From positions 1 to 32,000 of the forward strand of contig JASBSB010000004.1 of NCBI GenBank assembly GCA_030149205.1: DNA of 32,000 bases, given 5' to 3'. Position numbers and translations under genes: made by a program. Source of the DNA: Candidatus Heimdallarchaeota archaeon. GTDB lineage: Archaea > Asgardarchaeota > Heimdallarchaeia > Heimdallarchaeales > Kariarchaeaceae. Below, piece by piece: positions 15,355 through 32,000 of this stretch (positions within the stretch are counted from its first letter, which is position 1; every line of letters begins with the position of its first letter). The notes below the pieces were generated by a model. It was not told the DNA's origin. It searched no databases and saw only the letters and a list, made by a program, of their open reading frames with translations.

Positions 15355-16074
15355 CTACCCCCTCAGCTTCCACCGTACACGCCAGAACTCCACTGGTTCA
15401 TTTATCTCACCTTTACTTAGCATTTCAATCAATTCATAGTTTCTTTTGTTTATGAGCTGCTCCAGATAATTATAGGCTGGAAGAAACAAAAATCCTAAGG
15501 AAGCAGCTAATTGAAGAATTAGATTAAATCCTGATGTGTTACTTTTATTAAAAGTTAACATGAGAAGAACAAGGACAGGATACGAAATCAACACAGTAAT
15601 AATTAGATTCACAACTATTGAGTAATTTAAGGTAAGGGAATTATGATGGTCTTTAAGGTAACCCTCGTGATTTTTGTTTGAGAGATACTTAAACATATTC
15701 CTTGGATAAATTGTGAAAAATATGAAATGATTAATTGCTATTAAGGTGTTTGTCAAAACGAAAATTCCAGGTGTTAAAGCCTCTTTATAAAATAAAAGAT
15801 ACAAAAAATACTGAAGCATGAGCAAACCAGTTGGAATGTATATTTCAAACAAAAGGGAGCGAAAGACTCCATGCTCCAAGAACCATGAACGCTTTCTTAT
15901 CATGAACACAAGCTGAAAAATAAACACCAATGACTTTATCCCCAGAAAAATCCCATAGAGAACCAACATCATCAGCCATCTTGGGAAAATCAAGAAGGGT
16001 TGAAGGAGAATAATCTCAATTCCAATAAACCCAATGTACAGATACTCTATAAATTCAACTACTTTGTTATTCAT
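15355..16074 (-). CDS. Multi-pass membrane protein, partner/immunity-like family I (ends RWKLRG)
   Basis: About 6 TM segments; paralog of 18953..19669 (shared FEHLY/IEYLY, HG+.RSL and EQ.INKR..EFWR.RW.LRG); SD AGGAG upstream. Confidence 0.75.
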   Translation of the reverse strand: MNNKVVEFIEYLYIGFIGIEIILLQPFLIFPRWLMMLVLYGIFLGIKSLVFIFQLVFMIRKRSWFLEHGVFRSLLFEIYIPTGLLMLQYFLYLLFYKEALTPGIFVLTNTLIAINHFIFFTIYPRNMFKYLSNKNHEGYLKDHHNSLTLNYSIVVNLIITVLISYPVLVLLMLTFNKSNTSGFNLILQLAASLGFLFLPAYNYLEQLINKRNYELIEMLSKGEINEPVEFWRVRWKLRG

Positions 16075-16089
16075 TTTATTCTCCTATGT

Positions 16090-16185
16090 TTAATTTATTA
16101 ATTGACCAGCCATTAGTGCTAGAATAATGATTAGCACAGGTGTAAGGATGAGTTGAAGTTTTGCAAATTGGTGTACTTTATCCAT
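16090..16185 (-). pseudogene. Short hydrophobic C-terminal remnant (31 codons), possible tip fragment
   Basis: Reads MDKVHQFAKLQLILTPVLIIILALMAGQLIN*, with the stop 15 nt before the family I start; an in-frame stop lies 10 codons upstream. Confidence 0.3.
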
Positions 16186-16316
16186 TCCTTTTCTTGAACC
16201 AGTTGGACTCTCTTAGAATTCCCCTATTTAATGATTAAGCAAAATAACTAAACATTACTTTAATCAGAGCAAAAGACATAAAAAAACTGAAACGATAAAA
16301 ACTGATCATGATTTTT

Positions 16317-16868
16317 CTAAATCAGTTTAAAATAGCTTAAATATCGATTTAACTCTGAAATAAAGACAATGACAACCCCAAGTACGTGAATCACAAACCA
16401 AGACCTTAGTAATAATTGGCTGTAAGATACTGTCAAATCTTCTTTTTGAGGCAGTGGTCTTTCTAGACAAAGTGGAATTATATAAAATGGAAGTTTAAAT
16501 AATGGGATTGTTATTAACTCTTCAAGTTGTCCATCGGTGAGCGAATCTAAATAAAAGTTCAACATATATTCTATGAGCAAAAATAAAAAAAATGCAGTTA
16601 AAGGAAAAATTGGAACATAATAAGAGGAAAAGAATGAAAGGGCCAGAAGGACTAAACCAAGAGTATGAAAAATGAATTGGTTTTTCTTATTTGTGACCTC
16701 TTTAACATATTTCAAATACGGTTTGTACTGATTTTTTAAAAAGCGATTCGAGAAAAGGTACCTAAATAAATTTAACAGCTGAAAAGCTATATTTAGGAGA
16801 ATACTAAATAACATAGTGCTTACAATTATAATAATAAGCGAACCAAGCAAATAGAGATTCATTTCCAA
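16317..16868 (-). CDS. Membrane protein, candidate partner of module A
   Basis: About 4 TM segments; starts 6 nt after the stop of the module A tip (16875). Confidence 0.65.
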   Translation of the reverse strand: MEMNLYLLGSLIIIIVSTMLFSILLNIAFQLLNLFRYLFSNRFLKNQYKPYLKYVKEVTNKKNQFIFHTLGLVLLALSFFSSYYVPIFPLTAFFLFLLIEYMLNFYLDSLTDGQLEELITIPLFKLPFYIIPLCLERPLPQKEDLTVSYSQLLLRSWFVIHVLGVVIVFISELNRYLSYFKLI

Positions 16869-16874
16869 ATGTAC

Positions 16875-17326
16875 CTATAATCGCTTCATTGAGCCTGCCC
16901 AAAGCCACATGTTCATAAAGTGGTAAAATGTTAATGTACCGGCGTAAAGGAACTTAAGAACATCCATTTGATAGTCACTCGCAGATTCCTTGAAAAAAGA
17001 TATTCTACTCACAAAATTGATTATGTGATTTAAAATTTTACCAAATACTGCTATTGTCATGTAATTCAACCGAATCTTCACCCCGTCAATAGTGAAGCAG
17101 CCCTGATGGTCTGCAAGGCTGTAGTACTCATTGTCCTAAGCTCGCTGACAAAGTCCACCAGGGTCACCTCAGGCTTGCCAATGATGCTCATCACCCACAG
17201 GTTCTGCAACCAGCTCTCTTGGTAGATTAAATTTGAAATCAGTTGATTTTTAGGTGTTGTGGGAATTGTAATAAAAGCCTTCTGATGAGTCCAGGCATTC
17301 ACGTATCTAATATCCATTAATCTCAT
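16875..17326 (-). pseudogene. Orphan module A: leader + core-homology block + short tip, frameshifted
   Basis: 17078..17326 encodes WLQNLWVMSIIGKPEVTLVDFVSE..ALQTI. A 1-bp deletion near 17101-17104 relative to the main gene (gcagccc-tgatgg vs gccgtccttgatgg) shifts TIDGVK and the tip into ORF 16875..17081. Confidence 0.8.
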
Positions 17327-17342
17327 TTAAGTTTATCGCACA
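17300..17342 (-). promoter_or_regulatory. Cassette-head motif copy A
   Basis: TGTGCGATAAACTTAA + 24 nt + GTG. Confidence 0.65.
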
Positions 17343-17607
17343 AAACTCATCTTTTAACATAACTTCTAATCTTGCTTTATTATCCTCAGTCTCAAAAACT
17401 ACTTGTAAGTCATCCTATATGTCTGAACTATAACATTTCTTACCAAAATTAATGTTTCAATATTTTTTTTCATCATTAACTCTAATCATACATCGGTTAT
17501 AGAAATTAAAATTCCTTAACTTGCATATAACAATTTTCAAGCTTTAAAAAGTTCATTCAAAATTATTACTAATTAAAATCATTTTCATCTTTAAGATTTT
17601 AAGATAT

Positions 17608-18729
17608 TTAAACTGGACCGATTAGTAGAACATTTTTATCTTCTCGAACTTTTCTATATAATTTACAAGTTAGGTCTTTATCCTCTTCAGTGAATGAAGT
17701 TGAAAGTACTTCAGCAAAATTATAAATATTAGGGTCTTCTTTAAAGCCTAATAAAAATGACTTGTCTAAGGAGTTGGTGTTTGTTAAAAGAATAACTGTA
17801 AATTTAGTAGTAACAAGAAAATCAGGATCGATAAATTCAATTGGATTATGGCGTAGATCAAGGAAATTTACATCACAATTGATTAAATCTGTCGAAAATA
17901 ATTTTGTAATTTGATTATGACGTAAATCTAGTAGAAAGGCTGAAGCATCAAAGAAATTTGTCAATGACTGGATCCCAAGGTCATTAAAATTTAAAATTGG
18001 AATCGCTCTGTATTTCTGAATACCAAATATTTTAATCATTGCAACAATTAATCTATTAATAAAATGAACGTAAGCAAATGGTAATAAAATTTTTTGAGGC
18101 TCTAAATTTTTGGATGTCTTTGCTTTCAGAATTACATCTTGAACTCTTGCACTCGAAAATTTTGCAATGTTTTGATACTGTAGATATTTGCGCATATCTT
18201 GATTGTTAAGTAAATTACCCCTCCAGTATATTATCAAGATAAAATAAAATAAAATTGCTGGAACATAAAAATAAATTACCCCTCTTCTAAAATCAAGGAA
18301 GATTGACTCATAAGAACTATTGGCAAGTTCATTTAAGGTGTATATTCCTAAAATACCTGATGCACAAAAACCTATGAATGTCCAATAAGAATTTAGTATT
18401 GTTTTAAATATACCTAAATTAATAAAAAGGAACACAAAAATCCCAATAAGCCCCAGTATTAATAATCCGCCTAAAATCAATTGATAAACGATTGCTCCTA
18501 GATATAAGAGAAATTTTTCCCTCCGATGTATAAATAAAATTAAACCTAGTTGTCCTACAACCATCATAAGAACCGAAGTTATGAAGTAATTTAGCTTATT
18601 ATCAATTTTTAGCTGGGGATAATCTTCCGTGATATATACCAGTTTTGGAGAGCTAATTTTCCGCAGCATTTCCTCAAAAACTAAATATTGGCGGATTTTG
18701 TCCAAATCTTTTTGTGATGCGTTTATCAT
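17608..18729 (-). CDS. Membrane protein with C-terminal leucine-rich repeats
   Basis: About 5 N-terminal TM segments; LNFNDLGIQSL, LDLRHNQITKL and LDLRHNPIEFI (LxLxxNxI); SD AGGAGG upstream. Confidence 0.75.
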   Translation of the reverse strand: MINASQKDLDKIRQYLVFEEMLRKISSPKLVYITEDYPQLKIDNKLNYFITSVLMMVVGQLGLILFIHRREKFLLYLGAIVYQLILGGLLILGLIGIFVFLFINLGIFKTILNSYWTFIGFCASGILGIYTLNELANSSYESIFLDFRRGVIYFYVPAILFYFILIIYWRGNLLNNQDMRKYLQYQNIAKFSSARVQDVILKAKTSKNLEPQKILLPFAYVHFINRLIVAMIKIFGIQKYRAIPILNFNDLGIQSLTNFFDASAFLLDLRHNQITKLFSTDLINCDVNFLDLRHNPIEFIDPDFLVTTKFTVILLTNTNSLDKSFLLGFKEDPNIYNFAEVLSTSFTEEDKDLTCKLYRKVREDKNVLLIGPV

Positions 18730-18830
18730 ATGCGAAATCTTACCTCCTAGTTAAAATACAGTGGTTAGAAAGGATGAGTAAAGTCTCATAAGAGGTCTGG
18801 TGCATACAGGTTGCTGATCTATTCATAAGG

Positions 18831-19068
18831 AAAAGTACAAGACCATTAAAGCTTCCCTTTATTTTAATTTATCCTACAGGAAGTGATCGTTGGAACAGAA
18901 CATTCTTCGTGGAGAGGTTTCCTCATAGCTTTATTACAATCAACATCCCTCGTCAGCCTCTTAGGCTCCACCTTGCTCGCCAGAATTCCATGGGTTCACT
19001 CTCCTCCCCACTGCTTAGCTTTTCCATCAGTTTGTAGTATCTTTTGTTTATGACCTGCTCCCGATAAT
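18831..19068. repeat. 238-bp direct repeat, copy 1 (partner at 22000..22237)
   Basis: Ungapped alignment; covers the last ~38 codons of a family I gene plus ~120 bp of downstream sequence. Confidence 0.9.
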
Positions 19069-19669
19069 TTAAAGTAGGTATGTAATAAATTCCTAGAGAT
19101 CCAACTAATTCAAGAATGGTGTTAACTGATAAGAAAATAAACTTCGAATTTACAATAATCATAACAATTACGGCAACATGAGCGATCAGAATAGCTGGAA
19201 TGAGGGCATATATTTTATCTAGGTCAATTTTTAATCTAAATTGATAGTCCTTGATATATTCCTCATATTTTTTGTTTAAGAGATAATAATAGAAGGTTTT
19301 TGGATACATACTAAAAAACATGAATAGATTAATTGTGACCATCAGATTAAGCAAAATGTAAACTCCGGTAATGACACGGAAATCTAAGTACAACAAATAC
19401 AAAATTAGCTGAAAAATCAATAATCCTGTCGGGATGAATACATCTGTAAAAAGGGAGCGAAGAATTCCATGGTTTTGTAACCAATGCCGTCGACCAAATA
19501 TAAACCGTAATTGAGAGAAGAATATTATAGCTTTAATTCCAAAAATGAGACCATAAGGAACAAAGAAAAGATTGGGAATAAGTCCTAGAAAAAGTAGTAC
19601 TATGATCTCAATCCCTAATTCTAGGGTATACAAGTGTTCAAAATATAAAATTTGCTTTAATTTGATCAA
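18953..19669 (-). CDS. Multi-pass membrane protein, partner/immunity-like family I (ends RWSLRG)
   Basis: Paralog of 15355..16074; SD AAGGTG upstream of a TTG start. Confidence 0.75.
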   Translation of the reverse strand: MIKLKQILYFEHLYTLELGIEIIVLLFLGLIPNLFFVPYGLIFGIKAIIFFSQLRFIFGRRHWLQNHGILRSLFTDVFIPTGLLIFQLILYLLYLDFRVITGVYILLNLMVTINLFMFFSMYPKTFYYYLLNKKYEEYIKDYQFRLKIDLDKIYALIPAILIAHVAVIVMIIVNSKFIFLSVNTILELVGSLGIYYIPTLNYREQVINKRYYKLMEKLSSGEESEPMEFWRARWSLRG

Positions 19670-19712
19670 ATAAACACCTTTAGATCTATCATTTAATCAA
19701 CAACAAGTCCAT

Positions 19713-19755
19713 CACATATCTGTTATACATTAAGATTACTTAAGTTTATCGCACA
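19713..19755 (-). promoter_or_regulatory. Cassette-head motif copy E (core and tip absent)
   Basis: TGTGCGATAAACTTAA + 24 nt + GTG; overlaps the stop codon of 19746..20417; leads into only 8 codons and then the family I gene. Confidence 0.65.
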
Positions 19756-20417
19756 TTCAATTTTGCATCCTCATTCTTGTGTCCCTCTGTCACAGCTTCC
19801 TTCTTCTTTTGTCTATATCCAAGGATTATGAGTTGTGTCCTACGGAGAAGATACATGATGAATGGCCACCAAAGTAGTGAGTCAATAGTAATTAAATGTA
19901 ACCACCCAGAGATTTGTAGTCTTTGACAGGTTCCATCATAGCAAACATAAAACACAACCAAAACTGGAAGAATGAGAGAGAGAGGAAGAAATATTTTATC
20001 TATGGGGTCTTCAGGTGTTATATCCGCGGTAAAAAACTCAGATCCGTACCAGATATAAAACATTGGGTTCGCCAAAATAAAAAAACTTGTACCAAATATT
20101 ATGTCGACGGCTGCTAGTCCTAAAATAAGTAAATAGAGATACCTTAGAGAAAACAGGGTTGAAGCATCTCTAAGTTCTGATTTAAACAACACATAATATA
20201 GACCAGATACAAAAACTAGAAGAGGTAACAAATAATAAATAAACACAATTGAGAACCAAATCCAAACATTTGATCTAGATAGAGCGTTGATTATTTGATT
20301 GAAATTTACCTGAGAATTAATCAGAGGGTGTTTCCAAAAGTATGAAATCATAACTGCTAGGTAAGGCAAACTTATACCTTGAAATACTGAAAGGGTTTCA
20401 TATTCCTTATCTTTCAT
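19746..20417 (-). CDS. Multi-pass membrane protein (partner-like)
   Basis: About 5 TM segments, charged C-terminal tail, SD AGGAG upstream. Confidence 0.7.
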   Translation of the reverse strand: MKDKEYETLSVFQGISLPYLAVMISYFWKHPLINSQVNFNQIINALSRSNVWIWFSIVFIYYLLPLLVFVSGLYYVLFKSELRDASTLFSLRYLYLLILGLAAVDIIFGTSFFILANPMFYIWYGSEFFTADITPEDPIDKIFLPLSLILPVLVVFYVCYDGTCQRLQISGWLHLITIDSLLWWPFIMYLLRRTQLIILGYRQKKKEAVTEGHKNEDAKLNVR

Positions 20418-20429
20418 GCTGTATATCTC

Positions 20430-20675
20430 CTAAAAAAGTGAGGCGAAAGACCTTTGTAGTAGCAGAGGAGCAAATACAAGGGAATAGAAGAGTATTGACA
20501 TTCTTGTTTGAACTACCTTTTTTCCAATCATGACATCTACTCCATTGACTACACCGATAGTCAGGGCTATGAAAAGCACCTTAATGTAGTTGTGAAGCAC
20601 CTGTAAATTTAGTGTTTGCGGTGAGATTAGACCAACAAAGGCCTTATTTAACTCATTTGTTGTTTTGATTTTCAT
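20430..20675 (-). CDS. 81-aa hydrophobic ORF, possible tip remnant
   Basis: Two hydrophobic segments; stops 12 nt before the next gene, with the SD overlapping its stop. Confidence 0.35.
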   Translation of the reverse strand: MKIKTTNELNKAFVGLISPQTLNLQVLHNYIKVLFIALTIGVVNGVDVMIGKKVVQTRMSILFYSLVFAPLLLQRSFASLF

Positions 20676-20738
20676 TAAATTTCTTTCTCAGTTGATATTA
20701 TTTATTATTTCATCTACTTGAAAATGATTACTATTCAT

Positions 20739-21866
20739 TTAGTACAATTTGTGATTTGTGAGGTTATATTTGTATATCCCTCCATTGGAACCAACAATAA
20801 CTACCTCATGGCTTGAAAATTGGTGCATCTGTATTGGAACAAAATCTGTTTTGATACACAAAGTGTTATGTTCCGTCTGTTCAATTATTTCCCCTTCTGA
20901 GCATGATAGCAATCCAGAATCTATGACCAGCATATCATATACCATTGTACTATGAGACATCGGTAACTCTGAGGTCACTCCTCCCTCTATCTTATAAAGT
21001 GTCCCCTCCTCACTTCCCAGATAAATAGTGTCATCTTTAGATACTAAGGAATTGATATAGCAGTTAAACAAGAATCTTTCTGTGCTAAAATCAGATGTAT
21101 CGATAACAAACAACTCTGATTGCGTCTGTGAGTCATTGAGGAGAAATGTTTTGTTTTCATACTGTGTCAATCGCTCCACAGTTATTGGCAGTTTAACAGT
21201 GTGAAGAATTGCAAAGGTTCTTGATGAAATGTAATAGATGAATTCCCCTCTCCCAATTACTAAGAGCTCACCCTCCTCATGAAAGTCAAAAGGAAATTCT
21301 GGTGCTACTGGCAATACATATTCTTGCAGAACATTGAAGTTTGAATCATACAAAAGCGCTTGACCAGAGCTCATCAAAATTAAAACTTTTGCAGTTTTTA
21401 ATGGAAGAGCGTAGAACACGTCCTGGTTGATTTCCTTTGGTTTCTTAAAATTATTGAAATCAAAGACACCTAGTGTGTTATTTTTGTTGTAAATCAACAG
21501 GAATTTGTCACCCATAAATGGTTCAAGATGTTCAATGTCTGGAAATCTCAGAAAAATTGGTTCTTTGTCATACTCTAGATCTTGTATCTTAATCTGGAAA
21601 TTACTGTAAATTACGACCTTGCTTCCAATTATTACTGAATCTTTCACAAAAAATTGAGGTGAAGTCACACGAGAGCTCCCAATAAAAAGTGGTATAACAA
21701 ACCAGATAAAGGCTATTCCAGTCAAAATCGCAATTAAAAGACCAAAACCCACAAGAACCTCCTGTTGTATCCCAATTGTTTGAAAAACCATAAAAGAAAG
21801 GTATAAGGACAAAATTAGAAAAACAAGAAAATAAGAAAAGCTGGCACTAAAATATTTATGATTCAT
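20739..21866 (-). CDS. Two-TM-anchored beta-propeller (WD40-like) protein
   Basis: Two N-terminal TM helices followed by ~40-aa beta-repeats, e.g. YINSLVSKDDTIYLGSEEGTLYKI, HSTMVYDMLV and VVIVGSNGGIYKYNL. Confidence 0.7.
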   Translation of the reverse strand: MNHKYFSASFSYFLVFLILSLYLSFMVFQTIGIQQEVLVGFGLLIAILTGIAFIWFVIPLFIGSSRVTSPQFFVKDSVIIGSKVVIYSNFQIKIQDLEYDKEPIFLRFPDIEHLEPFMGDKFLLIYNKNNTLGVFDFNNFKKPKEINQDVFYALPLKTAKVLILMSSGQALLYDSNFNVLQEYVLPVAPEFPFDFHEEGELLVIGRGEFIYYISSRTFAILHTVKLPITVERLTQYENKTFLLNDSQTQSELFVIDTSDFSTERFLFNCYINSLVSKDDTIYLGSEEGTLYKIEGGVTSELPMSHSTMVYDMLVIDSGLLSCSEGEIIEQTEHNTLCIKTDFVPIQMHQFSSHEVVIVGSNGGIYKYNLTNHKLY

Positions 21867-21872
21867 TGTGTT

Positions 21873-21995
21873 TTACAACCTCAAATTATAGTTTGTCAAA
21901 TGAAATATGGCAAATATTAATGAAATAACAGCCATAGCAACATTAAATTTTAGAGCTGCGTCTAAATAATGTATTAACCCACTTTGAACAATCAT
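21873..21995 (-). pseudogene. 40-codon hydrophobic C-terminal remnant, possible tip fragment
   Basis: Reads MIVQSGLIHYLDAALKFNVAMAVISLIFAIFHLTNYNLRL*; the stop lies 6 nt before the propeller gene start. Confidence 0.35.
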
Positions 21996-21999
21996 GAGT

Positions 22000-22237
22000 A
22001 AAAGTACAAGACCATTAAGGTTTCCCGTTATTTAAATTTATCCTACAGAAAGTGATCGGTAGAACAGAACATTCATCGTGGAGAGATTTCCACAGAGCTC
22101 TACTACAATCAACATCCTGCGTCAGCCCCTTAAGCTCCACCGTGCTTGCCAGAACTCCACGTGTTCACTCTCCTCCCCACAGTTTAGCTTTTCCATTCAT
22201 TTGTAGAATCTTTTGTTTATGAGCTGATCCAGATAAT
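22000..22237. repeat. 238-bp direct repeat, copy 2
   Basis: Aligns without gaps to 18831..19068. Confidence 0.9.
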
Positions 22238-22244
22238 ATTGTAA
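22122..22244 (-). pseudogene. 3' remnant of a family I gene
   Basis: Reads LQYYLDQLINKRFYK*MEKLNCGEESEHVEFWQARWSLRG*, with an internal TGA at 22197-22199; the 5' part of the gene is missing. Confidence 0.85.
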
Positions 22245-22440: not shown

Positions 22441-23628
22441 TTAAATAAAAATATCTCCACCCAGGTTCATGCCACCAAAATATTTTATGACCTTATTGTC
22501 ATCATTATTTGTGATGGTTCTAATTTTAGATAATGATTCCTTGGTTATTGAATTAAGCAACAAGTTAATACTCCAATAATTTCTTTCTATCAAAAACCCG
22601 AAGAACATTGAAGTAATGACCACAGTTCCTAATATCACCATTGAAATAAATTGGATTGCATTAATCTCGAATTGATTATTAAATAACTGAGACAGTTGGA
22701 GAAAAATATTTAGTGCCAGAAAAAGCCCAATCCAAACATAAGACTTCTCATAAATATATCGATCAACCCACAACTGGTCTAAGAGAGACAATTTTCTAAA
22801 ATTAAATCTTTTAATAACCCTGTTGCCAATAATAACTCCAAGAATTAAAGATGAAAGATATAAAAAGGCTAAAAGAGCCGATGCAGCAGAGGAACCAAAA
22901 AACAAAGTCAATGCAGGCTGAAATTCCCAAAGAATATAATTGATTGGTAAAACAAAAATCACAACAATTCCTGAAAATAATCCAAACAACTTAGTTTGAG
23001 AGAATATTATGGGTTTGTAAGGTATATAAGAAAACTTGGAAAATGATGAAATAGCCATCAGAATAAAGAAAGAGGCAACTGGCACTAAAAACAGGCTGTA
23101 AAGGAGGATTATGATGATAATGCCAATTTGTGACCCAGTTGGATCAATAATCACAGAAAATCCCATCAAAACTAAAATTTGTAAGAAGAGGTTAATTATT
23201 GTGAATTTCAATGAACGACGATATAAGTGTTGGCTTTCAGAGAATTCAACTCCTCTTGGATTTATCAAAGCAATTGTCTCTTGCACAAAATTCAAAAATT
23301 TAAATAGTGATGGTCTAGTCTTTGCATTCAATGTTTGAACATCTTTTTCATCAAGAATTTTTCTTAAATTATCGGTTAGTTCTGGAAAAAATTTGTTCCA
23401 ATTTTTAAAAACTAACATTCCAACAAAGTCTGAAATTATAGGGAATAAAAATAACGTCCCAATAATCGCTATCATAACCTCTATCATTAGATACTTGTGT
23501 AGGAGATACAAATTATCTATTCCCAATGAGAAGGAGAAAGTAAAGAAAATTACCCAAAAAAAGATGGTTTGATAAATTATCAAAGTTCGAATAAATCTTT
23601 TCTTTCTTTGGCTTAAATTATGTTTCAT
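22441..23628 (-). CDS. Large multi-pass membrane protein (~9 TM), candidate partner of module C
   Basis: Starts 15 nt after the module C stop with SD GGGAG; F/I/L-rich composition. Confidence 0.75.
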   Translation of the reverse strand: MKHNLSQRKKRFIRTLIIYQTIFFWVIFFTFSFSLGIDNLYLLHKYLMIEVMIAIIGTLFLFPIISDFVGMLVFKNWNKFFPELTDNLRKILDEKDVQTLNAKTRPSLFKFLNFVQETIALINPRGVEFSESQHLYRRSLKFTIINLFLQILVLMGFSVIIDPTGSQIGIIIIILLYSLFLVPVASFFILMAISSFSKFSYIPYKPIIFSQTKLFGLFSGIVVIFVLPINYILWEFQPALTLFFGSSAASALLAFLYLSSLILGVIIGNRVIKRFNFRKLSLLDQLWVDRYIYEKSYVWIGLFLALNIFLQLSQLFNNQFEINAIQFISMVILGTVVITSMFFGFLIERNYWSINLLLNSITKESLSKIRTITNNDDNKVIKYFGGMNLGGDIFI

Positions 23629-23643: not shown

Positions 23644-24585
23644 TTAAACCAACGCTTGAATTGCAAACCACACACCCATGGCTAGATGGATGACACTCAA
23701 CAGAAGGAAAGGTACTGCATTGGCTAGCAATCTATGAGTCCGAGACCTTTGAACTTTTGATGCGGCACCATTCGTTATGGGGAATGACCCCGCCACCGTT
23801 CCAACAGTAAATCCAGCAATTAATCCTATGACTCCTGTATTAAAGAACAAGTCACCAACAATGTTGAAATCCCCGTGATTTAGAGGTAATAATGATGTAA
23901 ACAATCCAGTGATAAATTGACCTATGGCTAACAACGCAAAGATGGCAGTCATTTCTTTTGTTAATGCTCCCTTTACAATGAGAAACTCTGTGAACTTGCT
24001 TAACCCAGGTGCAAATCGTGTGAACTTTCCTAACTCAGTAGTTTTTGCGTTAAATCTATAATTACGGTAAGAAGGTCCAGCAAGCAAATATCTCATCGCA
24101 AGATATGAAACAACTGCTAGAAATATTGAAAAATGCATATTTGCAAATCTGATTGCCAGCCTCTTACGATCCTCCGCAGGCTGAGAGTTCACATGGATGG
24201 CCTCCCCTATGAGGATGGCAACATTTGCAAGATGTGTCACCATTGCTAAAACAAGATAATAGAATGTGTAAAACATCATGTATGTATAAGACTGAATCAA
24301 GATATTCCCTGAGGAATCCACAGTCACACTTACTGAAATTATTGTTTCAACAATCTGTAGCAGAGCAAGTATTGCTGAGCGATACACATTCATCATTTCT
24401 TCTGCAATAAGCAGGGGTATTTTGTTGACGATGAACTCCCCAGCCACCTTGACCACTTCGATGGTGACGCTGTCCTTAATGCCCTGCTGGTTAACACATG
24501 TGAAACTGAAGCTGCTGTGTGTTCCAATTCCAAAGGATTTTTGGTGAAGGCAATGGTACACATACCTGATATACATTAAAACCAT
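23644..24585 (-). CDS. Orphan module C: leader + partial core block + hydrophobic tip with a glycine zipper
   Basis: FSFTCVNQQGIKDSVTIEVVKVAGEFIVNKI aligns to the main gene's FTFTVRALQTIKDGVTVDGVKEAGEFIANNI; tip contains GLIAGFTVGTVAG. Alternative start is the GTG at 24561. Confidence 0.8.
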   Translation of the reverse strand: MVLMYIRYVYHCLHQKSFGIGTHSSFSFTCVNQQGIKDSVTIEVVKVAGEFIVNKIPLLIAEEMMNVYRSAILALLQIVETIISVSVTVDSSGNILIQSYTYMMFYTFYYLVLAMVTHLANVAILIGEAIHVNSQPAEDRKRLAIRFANMHFSIFLAVVSYLAMRYLLAGPSYRNYRFNAKTTELGKFTRFAPGLSKFTEFLIVKGALTKEMTAIFALLAIGQFITGLFTSLLPLNHGDFNIVGDLFFNTGVIGLIAGFTVGTVAGSFPITNGAASKVQRSRTHRLLANAVPFLLLSVIHLAMGVWFAIQALV

Positions 24586-24722: not shown

Positions 24723-25490
24723 CTATGTCTCTATAGGAGTGGAATTCTTGAGGGAAGGAAAGTCAATTTTAAGCATAAACCAATCAATTATAACTAAATT
24801 AATTAACACAAATGTCTTCGCAACCACATGGCCATTTACCAATGGAATTGAGTTTGTGATGTTTTCAAAAAATGTGAAAAATAGCAAATTTTCAAGGTAA
24901 TTCAATGTCAGAAAACCAAGGATGATGAATTTCCACATTGTAAGATCTGCCAATACTATATTCTTGATCATATTTTCAAAGTATAGCCCCATAATCAGAA
25001 CCACCCCTAATATTCTTAAGAGATTCCAGTCACCAGCAAAGAAACTCAAAAAATACAATGAGATTAAGGTGATTATCCTAATAAAGTAGAAACCAATGCT
25101 ACTTTTCTCAAGGGTCTTAGGAAATAAGTTAAATTCAAACTTAAATTTCGGGTCATCTGAATTGGAATCTGTTAATAAAAAGGGAAATATGATCAGTAAC
25201 ATTGAAATTAAGCTTTCTGATGTTATACTACTGATTAAGGCGATTACACTTAGGACATAATAAACCAGGTAATTTTCCTTAGGATCAGGTTCAATTATCC
25301 CTCGAAGTGATATCAGACTAATTATTTTGGAGATAACCAGAAAAATTACCAATCCTCCAAGAAGACCAAAACCCTCCCAGCTTGAAAATGACACATTATT
25401 AAGGAGCTGAAAATAAAGCACTATTGGAAACAGCAGCACCATTAGCTGCCTCAGAACAAAATTTACAACAGGGAGGTGTTTTCGTTTCAT
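24723..25490 (-). CDS. Multi-pass membrane protein (partner-like)
   Basis: About 7 TM segments; its ATG overlaps the module B stop (ATGA, 25487-25490). Confidence 0.7.
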   Translation of the reverse strand: MKRKHLPVVNFVLRQLMVLLFPIVLYFQLLNNVSFSSWEGFGLLGGLVIFLVISKIISLISLRGIIEPDPKENYLVYYVLSVIALISSITSESLISMLLIIFPFLLTDSNSDDPKFKFEFNLFPKTLEKSSIGFYFIRIITLISLYFLSFFAGDWNLLRILGVVLIMGLYFENMIKNIVLADLTMWKFIILGFLTLNYLENLLFFTFFENITNSIPLVNGHVVAKTFVLINLVIIDWFMLKIDFPSLKNSTPIET

Positions 25491-25726
25491 ATTCTAACTC
25501 CGTCGACGAAGCTGGTGACGCCCCTTTTGATCTCTGTGAGTGCCTTGTCTGTCACCCGAAACACCTCAGAGACAAAGTCAAACAGGGTCGCTCCAGGCCT
25601 GCCAATGATGCTCATCACGGTGTTCCACAGGTTCTGCTGCCAGCTTTTCAGGGACGGTTCATTCAAAGTTAGAACTCGGAACTTTGAATTAAATTCTAAT
25701 TTTAGCTGTGCAATGTTGATATTCAC
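25487..25726 (-). pseudogene. Orphan module B: core-homology block with no tip
   Basis: Reads SWQQNLWNTVMSIIGRPGATLFDFVSEVFRVTDKALTEIKRGVTSFVDGVRI*; 56% GC over 25501-25660; carries two 6-nt in-frame insertions relative to the main gene. Confidence 0.8.
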
Positions 25727-25938
25727 AAAGTTAAATAATTTTCTTTATTTATAAATTTACTCCACAAATGACAGAATTGAAATTCTATTGATTGGAATTA
25801 TATCATTATTTGAGATGACCTTTTGTCCCTGTCACGTATTTGAGTGTTATAAGTCACTTGTGTAAATACTACCCCTATTTTTAACTAACCATTTTCAAAT
25901 ATCTATAAACTTTGAAATCTTATCTGTAGATTGAAAAA

Positions 25939-26679
25939 TTAAAACCAACCATTTGATGTAATTAATAATAGTCTAAACAAAAAAATCGAAGCAGCAATAA
26001 ACAAACTAAGGTTTATTATTACTAGCCCTGGTAGATAAAGCATTAAAAGCGATTTAATAGAGTTTTCACTTCCTTGGTTATCTGGAGGATTGAAGTAATA
26101 AAGAAATCTAGGAAGTAAACCCAATGTAATTCCAGACACAAATATCAATAAGGTGATCATCTGTTCAACACCTCCGAGATAGACATCTATAATACGTATA
26201 GGGGCTAATACTATCGCAATTCCAATGAACAGGAGATCTAACTTCTTAGAGGTAGCAGGTACAAATTTGATAGTCCATTTCAACAATCTCTTAATCTGCT
26301 TGGAAGGTACAGAAAGACCACAGAAAGTTAATATTTGCTCGCTTTGATTAAACTCTCTGTTCAGCTCATCCGAAAGGTTTAGAATGACACCAAGCATCCC
26401 AAACCCAAGTGCCATAAAAAAAATATAACTTCTTGTTAGTCCAGATTTTACAGAAGGGGATAGCAGGCCAATTATAATTACAGTTAATCCACCACCAGCC
26501 ACAAAAAGGATAAAAATTGCTAAATTAAAAACCGTATATCTCTTAAATGAGGTGCCTTCAGCTATAAAGGAAAGAAAATGAGAGTCCCCGAATTTCAATA
26601 AATTCCTAGGGGGGGGTGATTCTGAGGCACTCAATCTACTAATACCACCCACTTTCAGTACCTGCCAGCATTTGAACAA
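25939..26679 (-). CDS. Multi-pass membrane protein paralogous to the tip of module D
   Basis: See the alignment in findings (DVY..G...I.....V.GI.LG.LP and terminal GW[YF]). An alternative TTG start at 26634 lies just after the module D stop. Confidence 0.75.
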   Translation of the reverse strand: MFKCWQVLKVGGISRLSASESPPPRNLLKFGDSHFLSFIAEGTSFKRYTVFNLAIFILFVAGGGLTVIIIGLLSPSVKSGLTRSYIFFMALGFGMLGVILNLSDELNREFNQSEQILTFCGLSVPSKQIKRLLKWTIKFVPATSKKLDLLFIGIAIVLAPIRIIDVYLGGVEQMITLLIFVSGITLGLLPRFLYYFNPPDNQGSENSIKSLLMLYLPGLVIINLSLFIAASIFLFRLLLITSNGWF

Positions 26680-27772
26680 GGTAATAAATCGCCAAACCTA
26701 TGAAAACCATGCTCAAACTGAAGAATAAAGGGATATAAACTTTAAAAACCCCTTTTGTAGGCGTACCTACACCAGATCCAATCTTCATGAATAATGATGG
26801 AAGCTTCCCTAAAAGAATGCCTATTACAGCAACTGCTACATCAATTGCACCGTCTGGTCCCTTTTCATACACATCAAGTAAGTTGGGAGCCACTGATAAA
26901 AATCCAAGTAATGCAAGGATATAAATTGTATATCTACTTAAACCACCCAAAGAGTATGCCGTAACCCTTATCAGTTTTTCTAAGTGACCGATATTTGAGA
27001 ATAATTTGCTAACAAACCCAATGTGATTTTTAGTCTCATAATTCCTTTTCATTTCATGGGCTAATTCAAAGGTTGATTGTAACAAAGCTAATCCAAGTGT
27101 CAGATAGAGAAGCAATTTTCTGAAAACAACTATTTCTTTTGCTTTCTTTGTTGTTCCAGTAAGCTTTCCCTCAATAACCATGGCAACAATTACAGCAGCC
27201 AGCATAGCACCGTTAACTATCAAATAAGATTGAAGAGAAGGTGTTCGTCCTAAGGTTGATAAAAGAATTGAAAAGAGCAACATAAACCCTCCCCAAACCC
27301 CAATTAATGCAAGTGTATCTCCTAGAGCATCTGAATCGACTGGCTTTAGGGAAAGTGTTTCAAATCTTACTTGAAGACTTGAGATTGGGCTTCCTATCTT
27401 TAAAATCTTCTGGTTAAAAATAAAAAAGAAATTTTGGATGTCAAAGGTAATAGTCAGATTTAGTAAATTTTTGTTCTGCTTGGAGATGATAATTGAATCT
27501 CCTAGTCTTGTGATTAAAGTCCTATCCTGAAAACTTTTAATGGAAAAAATAGCAAAGAGTGTGCTTAGAATGATTTCTTTCAAAGATAAATGAAGTGCTA
27601 ATACTATTGCTTTCATCACATTTTCCCCAGCCGCATTGATTCCATCGACAGTGATGCTATCATGGATGGAATATTCGCTAATTTTGGTAAAAATGAACTG
27701 GTATGAACTCCCTAAAGTAAACACTTGCTGATGGGCACAGGGATACACAAACTGATTATTCCTTACTATCAT
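26639..27772 (-). CDS. Orphan module D: leader + diverged core block + ~6-TM tip
   Basis: IHDSITVDGINAAGENV aligns to IKDGVTVDGVKEAGEFI of the main gene. Alternative start is the GTG at 27748. Confidence 0.8.
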   Translation of the reverse strand: MIVRNNQFVYPCAHQQVFTLGSSYQFIFTKISEYSIHDSITVDGINAAGENVMKAIVLALHLSLKEIILSTLFAIFSIKSFQDRTLITRLGDSIIISKQNKNLLNLTITFDIQNFFFIFNQKILKIGSPISSLQVRFETLSLKPVDSDALGDTLALIGVWGGFMLLFSILLSTLGRTPSLQSYLIVNGAMLAAVIVAMVIEGKLTGTTKKAKEIVVFRKLLLYLTLGLALLQSTFELAHEMKRNYETKNHIGFVSKLFSNIGHLEKLIRVTAYSLGGLSRYTIYILALLGFLSVAPNLLDVYEKGPDGAIDVAVAVIGILLGKLPSLFMKIGSGVGTPTKGVFKVYIPLFFSLSMVFIGLAIYYLVQMLAGTESGWY

Positions 27773-27788
27773 TTAAGTTTATCGTACA
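27746..27788 (-). promoter_or_regulatory. Cassette-head motif copy D
   Basis: TGTACGATAAACTTAA + 24 nt + GTG. Confidence 0.65.
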
Positions 27789-27961
27789 TCCTTCATCAAA
27801 TCCTTTTCCTTGAGGTCATATAAATTTCTCATAATTAAAATTTTTGTACATTCCATTAGCGATTGAATTACAGAGCTCCAAAACCCAAAATTCAAGGTAA
27901 TACAGGTAATGAATGTTTGCACATAGGGAAGTCTGAAAGTGAAAATAATGATAACAGACAA
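27779..27961 (-). CDS. 60-aa ORF, probable gene remnant
   Basis: Ends VR* inside the cassette-head motif; starts at a TTG with no clear SD. Confidence 0.25.
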   Translation of the reverse strand: MSVIIIFTFRLPYVQTFITCITLNFGFWSSVIQSLMECTKILIMRNLYDLKEKDLMKDVR

Positions 27962-28017
27962 TAAAAACTCACAAGCTCAGACACATTTCCTTAGAATAGC
28001 CTTTATTCAACCAAAGT

Positions 28018-28740
28018 TCAGTTAGCCGGTGATCTCTTTTGAATTTCTTTTAGAAGTTTTTTTCTGTAATTACTCTGTTTGAAACGTTTCCCTGATACAA
28101 AGGGAATGAATGCGGTCAAATGATCTGGCCAGGCATCTAACATATCCTCAGTTATGTAAAGGTTCAATGAAGAGGGTAGCAGAGCAATTATTACGCATAT
28201 CACAAAAAAAAATCCCTGTATTCCTTCAAAGGGTAGGAAACCGTATGTGTTGCCAATGATAAAAAAGTTCCACCAGATGATTGAGGTCTCTGAAAATTGT
28301 GATAAAATGAGAGCAGGGTTAGACCTCTGATTTGAAAGAGGTGCTAACTTAAAGAGGATATATATAAATGCAAGATAAATAAGTAAATAATCAAAAAATA
28401 CAACAAGGAACAAAATCCTTAGATTAAAGAAAACTGAATAGATGATTGTGCCTACAATTACAACATTCATAAGTAACCATGAACTAAAGAATGTAAATTT
28501 ACTTTTGAAGGATGGTTGCTCAATAAGTTGGTAAACAGCAAATAACCGTCTCTGTGGCAAGAAATGAATGATTGTGAGCAAAATCAGCTCTGCTACCGAA
28601 ATAAGTGAAGTAACCCAAGATTCAAAATTAACACCTTGAAAGATAAATATGAAATTGATCACTAGGAGAAGTATAGCTACTACTATTAAGAGCAAAAGTG
28701 TCTTTATTCCAATTAATGGGGTTTCAAGTTCTTGTTTCAT
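28018..28740 (-). CDS. Multi-pass membrane protein, partner/immunity-like family II
   Basis: Paralog of 28987..29718 (FQG, IHF.PQRR, SQ.SE and AWPD.LTA..PF..GK); SD AGGTGA upstream. Confidence 0.75.
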   Translation of the reverse strand: MKQELETPLIGIKTLLLLIVVAILLLVINFIFIFQGVNFESWVTSLISVAELILLTIIHFLPQRRLFAVYQLIEQPSFKSKFTFFSSWLLMNVVIVGTIIYSVFFNLRILFLVVFFDYLLIYLAFIYILFKLAPLSNQRSNPALILSQFSETSIIWWNFFIIGNTYGFLPFEGIQGFFFVICVIIALLPSSLNLYITEDMLDAWPDHLTAFIPFVSGKRFKQSNYRKKLLKEIQKRSPAN

Positions 28741-28753
28741 TAGATCACCTAAA

Positions 28754-28912
28754 CTAATCTATTCCCTGATTTGATAGAATAAAGAATTCTAATACAAATA
28801 TACTCATGGTCTGCAGATTAATATAAATTGACCTGGAGGTATTGCATACTCCAATACCAAATGATTCTTGAAGGACACAACAGTACACAGAACTATTATC
28901 CAATGGCATCAT
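28754..28912 (-). pseudogene. Collapsed module F: leader peptide only (52 codons, not in the ORF track)
   Basis: Reads MMPLDNSSVYCCVLQESFGIGVCNTSRSIYINLQTMSIF..., compared with module C MVLMYIRYVYHCLHQKSFGIGTHSSFSFTCVNQQGI. Confidence 0.7.
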
Positions 28913-28928
28913 ATAAATTTATCTCATA
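28886..28928 (-). promoter_or_regulatory. Cassette-head motif copy F (diverged)
   Basis: TATGAGATAAATTTATATG matches 15/19 positions of the consensus, with GTG at the same 24-nt offset. Confidence 0.55.
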
Positions 28929-28986
28929 AATTTCACAATTCTGTTCAACTCAGATGAGAAGGAGCAAAGTATCAATGTCGAAGAGA

Positions 28987-29718
28987 CTAGTGATTCTCAA
29001 TAAATCGCGAAAATTTATCAACCTCAATTAAATTTGCCTCTCTCTTTAGCTCCTTTCCTGTGTGAAATGGTAACAATGCAGTAAGTTTGTCTGGCCATGC
29101 TTTCATCATATCTTTTGACAGCCAGATTCTTCCAAGCAAGGCTGCAAGTATAAAGACAAACAAATAGAGAAGAAACACATAAACTGACAAAGTTCTTTCT
29201 AGATAATTTTTAAATATATCTCGAAATGTGAGACTTAAGATACTGAAATTTACCAGATGAAGAAATACTTCACTAAGCTGTGAAAATGAAATAAGTAATT
29301 TAAATTTAAGTGGTCTTATAGAACTCAGAGTCCAAAGTACAAAGAGAAGATAACCACTTAAAAACATTGGGAAATTAAATAAATAAAGTAGTGTGGAACC
29401 ACTGATTATTGAATAGAAAAGCACCATAACAAATAACATATTAGGCAGAGCCCAAAAAGTGACAAAAAGTATCTTATGTTGTTTATCCTTCTTCAGGTTG
29501 GTGAAAAGTTGATAAAGAATAATAACACGTCTTTGTGGAAAAAAATGAATGAATACCAAAATGCCTATGACTATTAATGAAATTATACTCTCGAACAAAT
29601 TTTTGAAAGATATTCCCTGAAACACAAAAATTACTACAAAGATAAAAAAAAGGGTTATAGATGCAAATTCTAAAAATATCCTAGTGCCATTCATTCTTGA
29701 GTCTGAGGTATTAGACAT
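28987..29718 (-). CDS. Multi-pass membrane protein, partner/immunity-like family II
   Basis: Paralog of 28018..28740; starts 8 nt after the stop of 29727..30191; SD AGGTGA. Confidence 0.75.
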   Translation of the reverse strand: MSNTSDSRMNGTRIFLEFASITLFFIFVVIFVFQGISFKNLFESIISLIVIGILVFIHFFPQRRVIILYQLFTNLKKDKQHKILFVTFWALPNMLFVMVLFYSIISGSTLLYLFNFPMFLSGYLLFVLWTLSSIRPLKFKLLISFSQLSEVFLHLVNFSILSLTFRDIFKNYLERTLSVYVFLLYLFVFILAALLGRIWLSKDMMKAWPDKLTALLPFHTGKELKREANLIEVDKFSRFIENH

Positions 29719-29726
29719 TTTATCAC

Positions 29727-30191
29727 CTAAAAAATACTCTTTGCAATTTTTATTGCAAAAAGATTCGATATTAAGAAATGTATTAATGCCATAACTAACA
29801 AAAATGCATAAAATGGTACAAGCTGTGTTAATTTCGCCAAGATTGAAAGTTCAGCTGTTGCTGTTGCCTCAGCAACTGTTTTCCAAAGAATTGATGAATA
29901 GAGGACAATCATAATTGGTAAAATAATCCATCCCTCTTTGAACCACTCTGGTAATTGATACAAGGGGTCTTGGGTTGGACTATAGGTATCACTCATAATA
30001 AAAGAAAGAGCAGCTCCAAAAAACATTCCACCCAAACCAGTCAAATATTTGGATGCAGAGGTAACTGGGAGTACTAAACCAGATATGAAACTCATTACAT
30101 CTATAAGAGCATATGAGATATCTATAGGTGTCGTATTGGACTCTGGTATTCTGGTGGTTTCTGCTGAAAATTCGTTGAAGTGTAAAAACAC
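29727..30191 (-). CDS. Orphan tip fragment (G/A/T-rich hydrophobic), probably 5'-truncated
   Basis: Contains TGLGGMFFGAALS; its C-terminal VPF...IHFLISNLFAI parallels module C VPF..IHLAMGVWFAI; no SD and no core block. Confidence 0.55.
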   Translation of the reverse strand: MFLHFNEFSAETTRIPESNTTPIDISYALIDVMSFISGLVLPVTSASKYLTGLGGMFFGAALSFIMSDTYSPTQDPLYQLPEWFKEGWIILPIMIVLYSSILWKTVAEATATAELSILAKLTQLVPFYAFLLVMALIHFLISNLFAIKIAKSIF

Positions 30192-30308
30192 TAATGATTT
30201 TCTATTAAAATATTTTTTTTAAGCAGAAGGTCTGGGTCGTTCTAAGATTTTCAGTAGAAAAAAAGATCGTTAAACCAATGTTTTTAATATCGTTAAAATT
30301 ATCTATTC

Positions 30309-30929
30309 TTAAATTGAGGGGACAAATCTAACTACAATAAAATACATCGAAAAATAAATTAAATGTATCCAAAGATAGTTACTAATCTCAAATTCTGGGT
30401 ACTTAGATGAAACGAACTCCCAGAGTAAAAATCCAGGGTATTTTGATCTTATACATCCCACAGCTTCCCTTTCAATATTGCTTTGAATGTAATTGCCAAA
30501 GAAACGATAGCCTAATGCTAAGATGGCTGTAAAAGGTAACCAAAAAAAACTAAGAGCTGGTAAAACGATAACATTCCCTAGTGATATCAGATTATTAAGA
30601 ATATTAGAAAAATACAACCAAAACAAAACAATGACAGGAAGGTAAACAAAGATTAGGTGAAAACTTACAAAACCGAAGAATTTTCCACGAGTGCTCACTT
30701 CACACTTTATTACCTCCAAGTATCCCAAACTCTTGTTAACCAGAAACAATAGAAAAAAAAGACTAATAGACAACAGGATAAAAATCGCAGTCAAAGTAAA
30801 TTGTTTGTTATAATTCACACCTTGATCATTTTGAAACAACTCAGTCAACAATCTAAGGAATATTACAATCGCTATTGTTAGCTCTACAATCAACGTGCTA
30901 CCTAAAATAATAATTCTTTGTGAATTCAT
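30309..30929 (-). CDS. Multi-pass membrane protein, candidate cognate immunity protein of the main gene
   Basis: Its ATG directly abuts the main gene's stop (TAAATG); about 5 TM segments. Confidence 0.7.
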   Translation of the reverse strand: MNSQRIIILGSTLIVELTIAIVIFLRLLTELFQNDQGVNYNKQFTLTAIFILLSISLFFLLFLVNKSLGYLEVIKCEVSTRGKFFGFVSFHLIFVYLPVIVLFWLYFSNILNNLISLGNVIVLPALSFFWLPFTAILALGYRFFGNYIQSNIEREAVGCIRSKYPGFLLWEFVSSKYPEFEISNYLWIHLIYFSMYFIVVRFVPSI

Positions 30930-32000
30930 TTAAACTTGGACATCTCCTGCAATCAGTCTGTAGACAATTACTAACAAATAGTGGTAATAAATCATTAAAG
31001 TGAAGTAACTAAATAGGTCCGGGATCAAACTTATTGTCATAAATGAGGTGACAAACCCAGAACCAACATCTGCAGATAAGCGTATAGCTATTGGTGTTAA
31101 ATACACGATAAGTGTTGTGATTATTCCAGGTAGTATCTTACTTGAAGCCCAACTGGGAAATAGATTAGAAATTGTACCCTCAGGATTTGCAAGGAAGGGA
31201 ATTAGATTCGACAGTAAATAGCCCCCTATTTTTGCTAAAGATGGTGCCATAGTTAATCCCAATATTCCAAATGAGCTCGCAAGTAAGAGCTGTAACAGAG
31301 CTAATGCGACAACACTTCCGCGGTGATAATATGCCATCCATCTTGCTTCCTCTGGTGATATTTGAATTATGTAAAATAAATTCAACAATGTCTGAGTGAC
31401 AATTGAGACAAGACCAATTCTCTTTGCCTCAAGTGAAATCGGGGTAAGACCATAACCTGATGGCTTTGATGGTGCAACTAGCATGGAAAAGGCTAAAAAT
31501 TCAATTACTAAGTTCAAGGCAAAGAATACAAAGGAATTAATCTGTGGATTTACACCTAATGTCTCTGGTAGCTCTATTCTAGGAAACAAATAAGGTGTAA
31601 GAATACGAAATTCTTCAACACCATCAAAGTTTAAAACCAAATCTAGAGGAGGGGTAATATCCATCTTGATAAAACGAGTTATTCCAGCAAATGTTATTAT
31701 ACCCCCATTACTTTGAGTTGCCACATTTATTGAATACTGAGCGCTGATGGTGTAAAATATGGTGTGTAACAGATTAATAAAAAAACTTTTGACATCTTCT
31801 ACAATTGGTAGGAGTATATTGTTGGCGATGAACTCTCCAGCCTCCTTTACCCCGTCGACGGTGACGCCGTCCTTGATGGTCTGTAGGGCTCTGACTGTGA
31901 AGGTGAAGAACTGGCTCAGCGCTTCCACCAGGGTCGCCCCAGGCTTGCCGATCAGCCCCATCACCCACAGGTTCTGCTGCCAGTTGTCATCCTCATCAAT
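30930..32000 (-). CDS. C-terminal part of a large protein (open to the window edge): GC-rich conserved core + AT-rich hydrophobic tip; putative polymorphic membrane toxin
   Basis: The frame stays open upstream of 31964 (IDEDDNWQQNLWVMG...). GC is 106/180 over 31821-32000 versus 39/120 over 31681-31800. The tip has about 6 TM segments. Confidence 0.75.
   Translation of the reverse strand: MDEDDNWQQNLWVMGLIGKPGATLVEALSQFFTFTVRALQTIKDGVTVDGVKEAGEFIANNILLPIVEDVKSFFINLLHTIFYTISAQYSINVATQSNGGIITFAGITRFIKMDITPPLDLVLNFDGVEEFRILTPYLFPRIELPETLGVNPQINSFVFFALNLVIEFLAFSMLVAPSKPSGYGLTPISLEAKRIGLVSIVTQTLLNLFYIIQISPEEARWMAYYHRGSVVALALLQLLLASSFGILGLTMAPSLAKIGGYLLSNLIPFLANPEGTISNLFPSWASSKILPGIITTLIVYLTPIAIRLSADVGSGFVTSFMTISLIPDLFSYFTLMIYYHYLLVIVYRLIAGDVQV

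Follow-up and report, generated by a model that had tools for sequence, protein, structure and literature searches.

The stretch of DNA analysed here (hereafter the window) is the first 32,000 nucleotides (nt) of contig C1 of Candidatus Heimdallarchaeota archaeon, an Asgard archaeon, and about half of it is occupied by part of a lineage-specific gene array, in which a short core rich in guanine and cytosine (GC) is joined to mutually unrelated hydrophobic tails (tips), each with its own membrane gene (partner) downstream, all of them built from undescribed domains. The best single reading of the array is a C-terminal cassette system that would work like polymorphic toxin/immunity systems, to which we would give somewhat less than an even chance. 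The cassette-and-recombination part of this reading is well supported, and toxicity, protection and delivery are what we only infer. The assembly consists of 12 contigs (3.3 Mb, 93.5% complete), of which C1 measures 271 kb. A first-pass annotation of the window had described 16.6 kb of genes on one strand, and every substantial open reading frame (ORF) at 15355..32000 does lie on the minus strand; the size fell short, because the array runs on from window position 15355 to C1:57325, covering 42 kb, all on the minus strand, up to a 614-amino-acid (aa) head gene (C1:55481..57325).

Core-bearing copies number 19, all on C1: 16 on the minus strand at 17-57 kb and, on the plus strand, three at 94.8-100 kb. 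A genome-wide six-frame search by phmmer, for which the core of the longest copy was the query, found 16 ORFs (E 3e-4 to 7e-91); an iterated profile search of the genome's ORFs gave 17 matches, and the core blocks in the window match the profile with E-values of 1e-7 to 1e-27. Similarity between cassettes stops at a fixed junction, beyond which the tips fall into mutually unrelated classes, and the spacing from cassette to partner is only -4 to 15 nt, indicating tight coupling. The main array has seven intact-looking cassettes of 312-614 aa and about 24 open partner-type membrane genes. A second array on the plus strand (C1:94.0-100.8 kb; genes 2776..8780 (+) within C1:92001-103000) carries three cassette/partner modules, one of them with a T1-like tip and an XY partner; in another, an intact cassette of 370 aa stands before a partner of family I (C1:100058), a family that in the window has lost its cassettes.

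The head gene is the 5'-most gene of the array (minus strand) and combines a unique N-terminal part of about 225 residues, both core blocks and a T1 tip, and its partner overlaps its 3' end by 8 nt. The two blocks pointed out by the first-pass annotation, WQQNLW and IKDGVT..G.K.AGEF, do recur in the genes starting at 32102, 27772, 25726, 24585 and 17326, and the layout that it had recognised, with a core, a variable tip, a coupled gene behind it and orphan modules, is real. What it had taken for a large gene running off the window edge turned out, on extending the contig rightwards, to be only 390 aa long (C1:30930..32102 (-), with its 3' 1071 nt at 30930..32000 of the window), and because this gene bears a head (CTHQ) of the same type as the orphans, it is one more cassette. 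Both blocks are present in its core at about 31812..31982, its hydrophobic tip occupies 30930..31811, and GC is 0.59 in the core vs 0.36 in the tip. The ATG of its partner (30309..30929 (-), 206 aa, about five transmembrane (TM) segments; this and the other TM numbers come from our own Kyte-Doolittle scan and are crude) abuts its stop codon, with a 0-nt gap.

The four orphan modules named A to D in that annotation are real, and its inventory was incomplete, as extra heads, a tip remnant and a 3' remnant of a partner are also present. Cassette D (26639..27772 (-), 377 aa) has a YPCAHQ head, block 2 only (about 27602..27667) and a tip with multiple TM segments; its partner (25939..26679 (-)) is 246 aa long if read from the TTG at 26679, and an alternative TTG at 26634 would leave a spacing of 4 nt. 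Cassette B (25487..25726 (-), 79 aa) contains block 1 and the start of block 2, and stops just past the junction without any tip; its partner (24723..25490 (-), 255 aa, about seven TM segments) overlaps it by 4 nt (ATGA), belongs to the XY superfamily and is 41% identical to the partner of the head gene and 77% identical to C1:47904..48671. Cassette C (23644..24585 (-), 313 aa) starts with the head MVLMYIRYVYHCLHQ, has block 2 only and bears a G-x3-G-x3-G-x3-G zipper in its tip, and its 395-aa partner (22441..23628 (-), about eight TM segments) follows after 15 nt. Sequences beyond the core are mutually unrelated, as had been proposed, and a membrane gene stands close behind each of these modules. 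For module A (16875..17326 (-)), block 1 and the downstream membrane gene were borne out, and the module proved to be frameshifted: the head and block 1 lie in ORF 17078..17326, and block 2 (TIDGVK) with a short tip is read on, past a frameshift, in ORF 16875..17081, 6 nt after which the partner follows (16317..16868 (-), 183 aa, about five TM segments).

One important characteristic of the core is its base composition. GC is 0.42-0.59 in the cores vs 0.35 for C1, and in the head gene the region preceding the core (pre-core) has 0.53, with about 0.7 at third codon positions in pre-core and core together. The same step is found in the sister species (L015:1-7524 (-)), the genomes having 35-37% GC and the pre-core and core about 0.55; it is absent from more distant relatives. 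Over a stretch of exactly 159 nt of core, the head gene is 92% identical in nucleotides to C1:38098..39036, with unrelated flanks, and the 5' 320 nt of C1:38098..39036 are instead 82% identical to C1:44578..45987, so that the core is a mosaic. Neighbouring segments also diverge differently: synonymous divergence (dS) is 0.20 for a pair of truncated C-type cassettes vs 0.79 for their partners. From the mosaic core and this unequal divergence, frequent gene conversion in the core, possibly GC-biased, can be suggested. The exchange through the core block foreseen by the first-pass annotation was right in that the copies do swap core sequence; a giant main gene to receive the tips was not found in the assembly. 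A GC-rich recombining core in a genome of 35% GC offers a clean natural case for the study of archaeal gene conversion.

A conserved element precedes each cassette and takes one of two forms: GATAAACTTAA, which overlaps the first ATG, or GGATAAATTTATATA, located about 55 nt upstream. Counted on both strands, the genome has 71 occurrences of the motif GATAAAYTTAW; 13 of them are on the arrays' coding strand, and the two arrays together account for less than 1% of the sequence. The element is a putative promoter, resembling the transcription factor B recognition element (BRE) and TATA box of archaea. The first codons of the cassettes encode a CxHQ leader, and because CxHQ is conserved through synonymous changes (TGC/TGT, CAT/CAC and CAG/CAA), this leader is probably translated. 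In other genomes, orphans have different heads and start elsewhere in the core. Bacterial orphan cassettes as a rule lack start signals of their own; unlike them, the present cassettes have promoter-like heads and a conserved, probably translated leader, and all of their tips are hydrophobic.

Tips and partners are associated in a class-specific manner. All four T1 tips (in the head gene, C1:34330, C1:32931 and C1:94776) have a member of the XY superfamily downstream, and XY partners are related to each other with pairwise z scores of 5-11 vs shuffles and with conserved N, R, P and G positions. Two tipless cores (B in the window and C1:48668) retain an XY partner, which looks like deletion of the tip. 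Partners diverge faster than tips, with identities of 22-28% vs 31-50%. Partners of truncated or absent tips are still open, and the ratio of nonsynonymous to synonymous divergence (dN/dS) is 0.26-0.52, so that the partner genes are under purifying selection where tips are truncated or missing. The two kinds of protein differ in composition as well: Gly, Ala, Ser and Thr together make up 29% of tips vs 19% of partners, and small-x3-small zippers are five times more frequent in tips, although the p-values of this comparison are overstated because the copies are paralogs.

The rest of the array in the window consists of remnants and of membrane genes without an intact cassette, all on the minus strand. 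Downstream of the first partner lies a 154-aa hydrophobic ORF rich in small residues (29727..30191), probably a core-less tip remnant, and 8 nt past it a 243-aa partner gene with about five TM segments (28987..29718), whose paralog is a 240-aa partner-type membrane gene at 28018..28740 (31% identical); between these two, a degenerate cassette-head motif (28886..28929; repeat family D3) has no core behind it. A 246-nt segment at 21992..22237 (repeat family D2) comprises the 3' remnant of a family-I partner with its non-coding tail and is 87% identical to 18823-19068. Three membrane-protein genes of 375, 81 and 223 aa without a core gene (19746..21866) are followed by another cassette-head motif (19713..19756), which stands immediately upstream of a partner gene, with core and tip missing. 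That family-I partner gene (18953..19669) encodes 238 aa with about six TM segments, and next come a 373-aa membrane protein (17608..18729), which has a sub-threshold leucine-rich-repeat (LRR)-like C-terminus and is a paralog of C1:36554..37711, and, as the final gene of the array, a 239-aa family-I partner gene (15355..16074).

Such remnants raise the question of whether the array is merely functionless debris, left when the 3' end of a giant gene, since lost, was repeatedly copied by segmental duplication. In the main array, 11 of the 18 cassettes or tip remnants have a truncation, a frameshift or no core, remnants of heads and partners lie among them, and a carrier gene is absent, all of which decay would explain. 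However, seven cassettes of 312-614 codons and about 24 partners have stayed open, whereas a random stop would be expected about every 14 codons at 35% GC, as calculated from base composition. The dN/dS values below 1, the synonymous variation around the conserved leader and the multi-copy state of the family in five other genomes are likewise difficult to reconcile with decay, and we consider this explanation quite improbable.

We searched for homologs at the levels of sequence, domain and fold. The head gene, tips and partners had no above-threshold match in Pfam, NCBIfam or PADLOC; LRR matches below threshold were obtained for two membrane genes of the array, and a tape-measure match (E = 0.07) and a holin match (E = 0.008), also sub-threshold, were set aside. 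A full-length AlphaFold2 (AF2) model of the head gene, with a predicted local distance difference test (pLDDT) score of 71, begins with an N-domain made of helices, continues with a helix of 67 residues that spans the core and a small beta domain predicted with confidence, and has long helical hairpins in the tip. Foldseek with this model returned nothing at E <= 0.001 from PDB and AFDB clusters, and an exhaustive wide VIA-align search gave a best Z of 7.4, with generic helical bundles only; a domain-only model (pLDDT 59.5) was too poor for searching. When the head gene was used in a word-based protein search, nothing but paralogs from the same genome came up, since the giant relatives described below exceed its length limits. 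Looking up the exact sequence of the 390-aa gene in other assemblies gave no record, and 40 loci with an exact 18-mer from the WQQNLW coding region in metagenome contigs were dismissed as chance, because none of the 40 encodes the family.

Relatives became visible when an exhaustive HMMER search was made in 1.8 billion representative proteins, which gave 48 matches, none of them bacterial. Three of them are giant proteins of 2,661, 1,988 and 1,199 aa, of which the shortest may be partial. Their C-terminal region aligns with residues about 26-380 of the head gene, and from there hydrophobic helices reach the protein end; the alignment begins only from about residue 26-44 onward, and phmmer with the head gene gives E 1e-22 to 1e-48 against them. 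This giant LamG family (P0009, P0014, P0007 and, in the sister species, G003:C209) shares a pre-core/core module of about 270 aa together with a hydrophobic C-terminus. The 2,661-aa protein (P0009) and the giant of the sister species have a Sec-type signal peptide; the latter has at least 2,508 codons, its contig breaking inside the core. Versions of 1,988 to 2,661 aa are present in the sister species and two further assemblies. In the two with a signal peptide and in the 1,988-aa giant, Pfam detected no domains except LamG/pentaxin, and a caspase-like domain suspected by eye in the giants was unconfirmed by Pfam and is not claimed. A membrane-protein gene follows the giant gene in both loci examined. 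Another assembly has stand-alone forms that include the pre-core and measure about 500 aa, and no DNA-level synteny was found between the array head and the contig of the sister-species giant gene.

We also examined the distribution of the family in 41 related genomes by a profile search. All four species of the genus are positive (16, 16, 5 and 10 matches), as are two other genera of the family-rank taxon (13 and 1 matches), and all 29 genomes of the order's other families are negative; among these 41 genomes, the family is thus confined to one Heimdallarchaeota family. It is multi-copy in five other genomes, and a contig profile scan with alignment A2 found one locus, in a family-level relative (Candidatus Heimdallarchaeota archaeon).

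The neighbours of the giant genes, which include toxin-antitoxin genes at both loci and an integrase at one, could fit a role in anti-virus defence, in which membrane-disrupting effectors would be restrained by their partners and freed on infection, leading to abortive infection. The tightly coupled pairs do resemble an effector with its inhibitor. PADLOC gave no match, however, no sensor or nuclease-type domain was found, and the secreted LamG carrier of the relatives is ill-suited to intracellular defence, so that we regard this possibility as highly improbable.

The polymorphic toxin/immunity-like reading can be put together as follows. In the relatives, a giant Sec-exported LamG surface protein ends in the pre-core/core module and a variable hydrophobic tip; the tip would be a membrane-acting effector, and the coupled downstream membrane gene would encode its cognate protector. 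Downstream cassettes, each consisting of core, alternative tip and partner, would be swapped by recombination in the GC-rich core. In the genome studied here, no giant carrier was found, and the array would therefore most likely act mainly as a repository, holding tips and especially the protective partner genes, which stay intact where tips have decayed. A wider form of this proposal, which we hold possible with a little less assurance, is that one Heimdallarchaeota family has evolved, independently of bacteria, contact-dependent competition or self-recognition, based on a LamG giant with swappable membrane tips and matching partners, that GC-biased conversion at a fixed junction diversifies the cassettes with their promoters, and that genomes like the present one have lost the carrier and hoard the partners as acquired protection.

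Several observations weigh against the toxin/immunity-like reading. The N-terminal 650-2,200 residues of four giants served as queries to look for a giant carrier, by tblastn and phmmer, in the genome's own 93.5% complete assembly, and nothing credible was found. Extending the contig rightwards for an N-terminus, as the first-pass annotation had advised, did reach the head gene, and this longest copy has neither a hydrophobic N-terminus nor a signal peptide, its first predicted TM segment being at residue 413. No tip matches a known toxin family in Pfam, NCBIfam or PADLOC, and the fold searches gave generic helical matches only, in agreement with the earlier remark that no toxin domain is recognisable, and we know of no archaeal route by which a multi-helix membrane domain could be passed into a neighbouring cell. 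Tips that show 24-29% identity in sister species have unrelated downstream genes; in one case (G003:C110, L029:409-1320 (-)), the gene behind a D-like tip encodes 304 aa that by inspection look like a soluble leucine-rich-repeat protein and not a membrane protein. Furthermore, the promoter-like heads and the conserved leader favour independent expression of the cassettes over silent storage, and the hydrophobic tip of the giants could simply be a membrane anchor.

These last two points lead to an alternative in which the tip is the C-terminal anchor of a giant adhesin, the partner an accessory membrane subunit and the array an archive from which the anchor or its complex is switched or diversified, e.g., to evade viruses that have it as their receptor. 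An N-terminal signal peptide and a C-terminus with multiple TM segments, as in the giants, make the topology of an anchored surface protein, the cassettes are probably expressed as membrane proteins of the producer, and the AF2 model shows long helical hairpins and no toxin-like fold. Anchors, however, require neither unrelated classes at a fixed junction nor a cognate partner gene, partners here outlast tips, and the part that varies is not the extracellular one, at which such variation is usually directed; surface variation of this kind therefore seems to us rather improbable.

One further observation against a toxin with its antidote comes from cassette D, whose tip is homologous to its own partner over about 210 aa (z = 15 vs shuffles); the two share a GW-aromatic C-terminus, and this is the only such pair among 10 tips tested. 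Paralogy of this kind would better suit a like-with-like membrane complex, i.e., non-lethal recognition of self or kin by a polymorphic membrane identity pair that binds only its cognate and is displayed on, or exchanged via, the giant. Recognition would explain the polymorphism, the tight coupling and the all-membrane nature equally well; the LamG domains of the giant relatives are of an adhesion type, and a heteromeric complex with allele-restricted binding is known as a precedent in IdsD/IdsE (PMC4471559). On the other hand, the keeping of many partner genes without tips is more typical of hoarded immunity, background knowledge of cell-cell recognition in these archaea is lacking, and the genome itself has no carrier. 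Recognition is thus an unlikely explanation in our judgment, and the toxin/immunity-like reading, in which hoarded partners have a natural place, is the one we tentatively retain.

The genes around the array were also annotated. Directly adjoining its 3' end is a gene (14136..15065 (-)) for a 309-aa protein with two zf-PARP zinc fingers (Pfam E = 4e-21, two stretches) around a weak OB-fold match. The head of the array is bordered by a gene whose product of 300 aa has a D..GEFKS motif and, at the C-terminus, VGLEKVV repeats (C1:57464..58366 (+), equal to L002:7464-8366), which matches no family; a 3' fragment of the same gene (75% identical) borders the second array (C1:101061-101453 (-)), and a third copy (50% identical) is at C7:429719-430594. 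Elsewhere in the window, genes are grouped at 7417..10524 (-) for a ParA/MinD-like ATPase, for a protein of the LigB family and for a RusA-type resolvase, of which the RusA gene may mark an integrated element, and a 760-aa ORF (3806..6088 (+)) has no Pfam or NCBIfam match. The window contains no tRNA or Rfam elements.

If the toxin/immunity-like reading is true, a native multi-copy cassette system whose variable parts all lie in the membrane would become a new source of membrane-active proteins with cognate partners, and would provide a testable handle on cell-cell interaction in the Heimdallarchaeota lineage. A full-text search in a limited collection of literature found no account of such a system in Heimdallarchaeota.

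The array is similar to the polymorphic toxins Rhs, CdiA and MafB in having a conserved N-part and, past a fixed junction, unrelated tips at the C-terminus, with orphans and a coupled gene downstream, and particularly to Rhs in its GC-rich core and AT-rich tips. Orphans that share an exchanging homology block are present as 19 copies with a mosaic core, and the downstream gene has the position of an immunity gene (-4 to 15 nt; XY behind T1 in 4/4), its protective role being putative. There are clear differences as well. None of the tips matches a known toxin family and none of the partners a known immunity family; an N-terminal secretion domain is missing from the longest copy in this genome, Sec peptides being found in the P0009 and G003 giants; and the carrier, present in relatives only, is a Sec-exported LamG giant. 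No YD/RHS, FHA/TPS, VENN, PxxxxDPxGL or DUF1020 element was found. By Pfam, an RHS repeat/core domain is absent from the head gene, cassettes and giant relatives, which speaks against an Rhs/YD-repeat system, and the junction motif is DGVK.AGEF instead of PxxxxDPxGL. Membership in contact-dependent inhibition (CdiA/CdiB/CdiI) is likewise not indicated, as Pfam found no two-partner secretion (TPS) or filamentous haemagglutinin (FHA) domains, VENN or CdiB-type domains in the same proteins; moreover, an outer membrane to hold CdiB does not exist in archaea. The survey that defined polymorphic toxin systems (Zhang et al. 2012, PMC3482391) describes them as uncommon among archaea, where they nest within bacterial clades, and includes as precedents CdiI immunity proteins with two TM segments, other immunity proteins with LRRs and a tip that forms pores.

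Two bacterial systems resemble particular aspects of the array. IdsD and IdsE of Proteus mirabilis form a heteromeric complex in which variable subdomains set allele-restricted binding (PMC4471559), and the likeness lies in adjacent genes for membrane proteins whose variable regions would set cognate binding. Ids differs in its type VI delivery, in being a single pair and not an array and in lacking sequence similarity to the present family. The arrays of orphan immunity genes for acquired interbacterial defence (AID) in Bacteroidales, in which immunity is demonstrated and the cognate type VI secretion system (T6SS) toxins are known (bioRxiv 10.1101/471110), similarly keep protective genes without functional toxins or a delivery system in the same genome; immunity and toxins are both known there, whereas both are inferred here.

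The nearest conceptual precedent is the VARTIG modules of Thermococcales, in which a large surface protein has a hypervariable, recombining C-terminal immunoglobulin (Ig) domain and whose function is unknown (Makarova et al. 2021, PMC8416519). Ig domains, which are what varies in VARTIG, were not found here by Pfam, the giant relatives having LamG/pentaxin only; what varies in the present array is a multi-helix hydrophobic region, accompanied by long tandem arrays of truncated cassettes. In both cases, an archaeal locus restricted to one lineage combines a large surface protein, a variable and recombining C-terminus and variable downstream genes, and the same three kinds of hypothesis have been raised to explain it.

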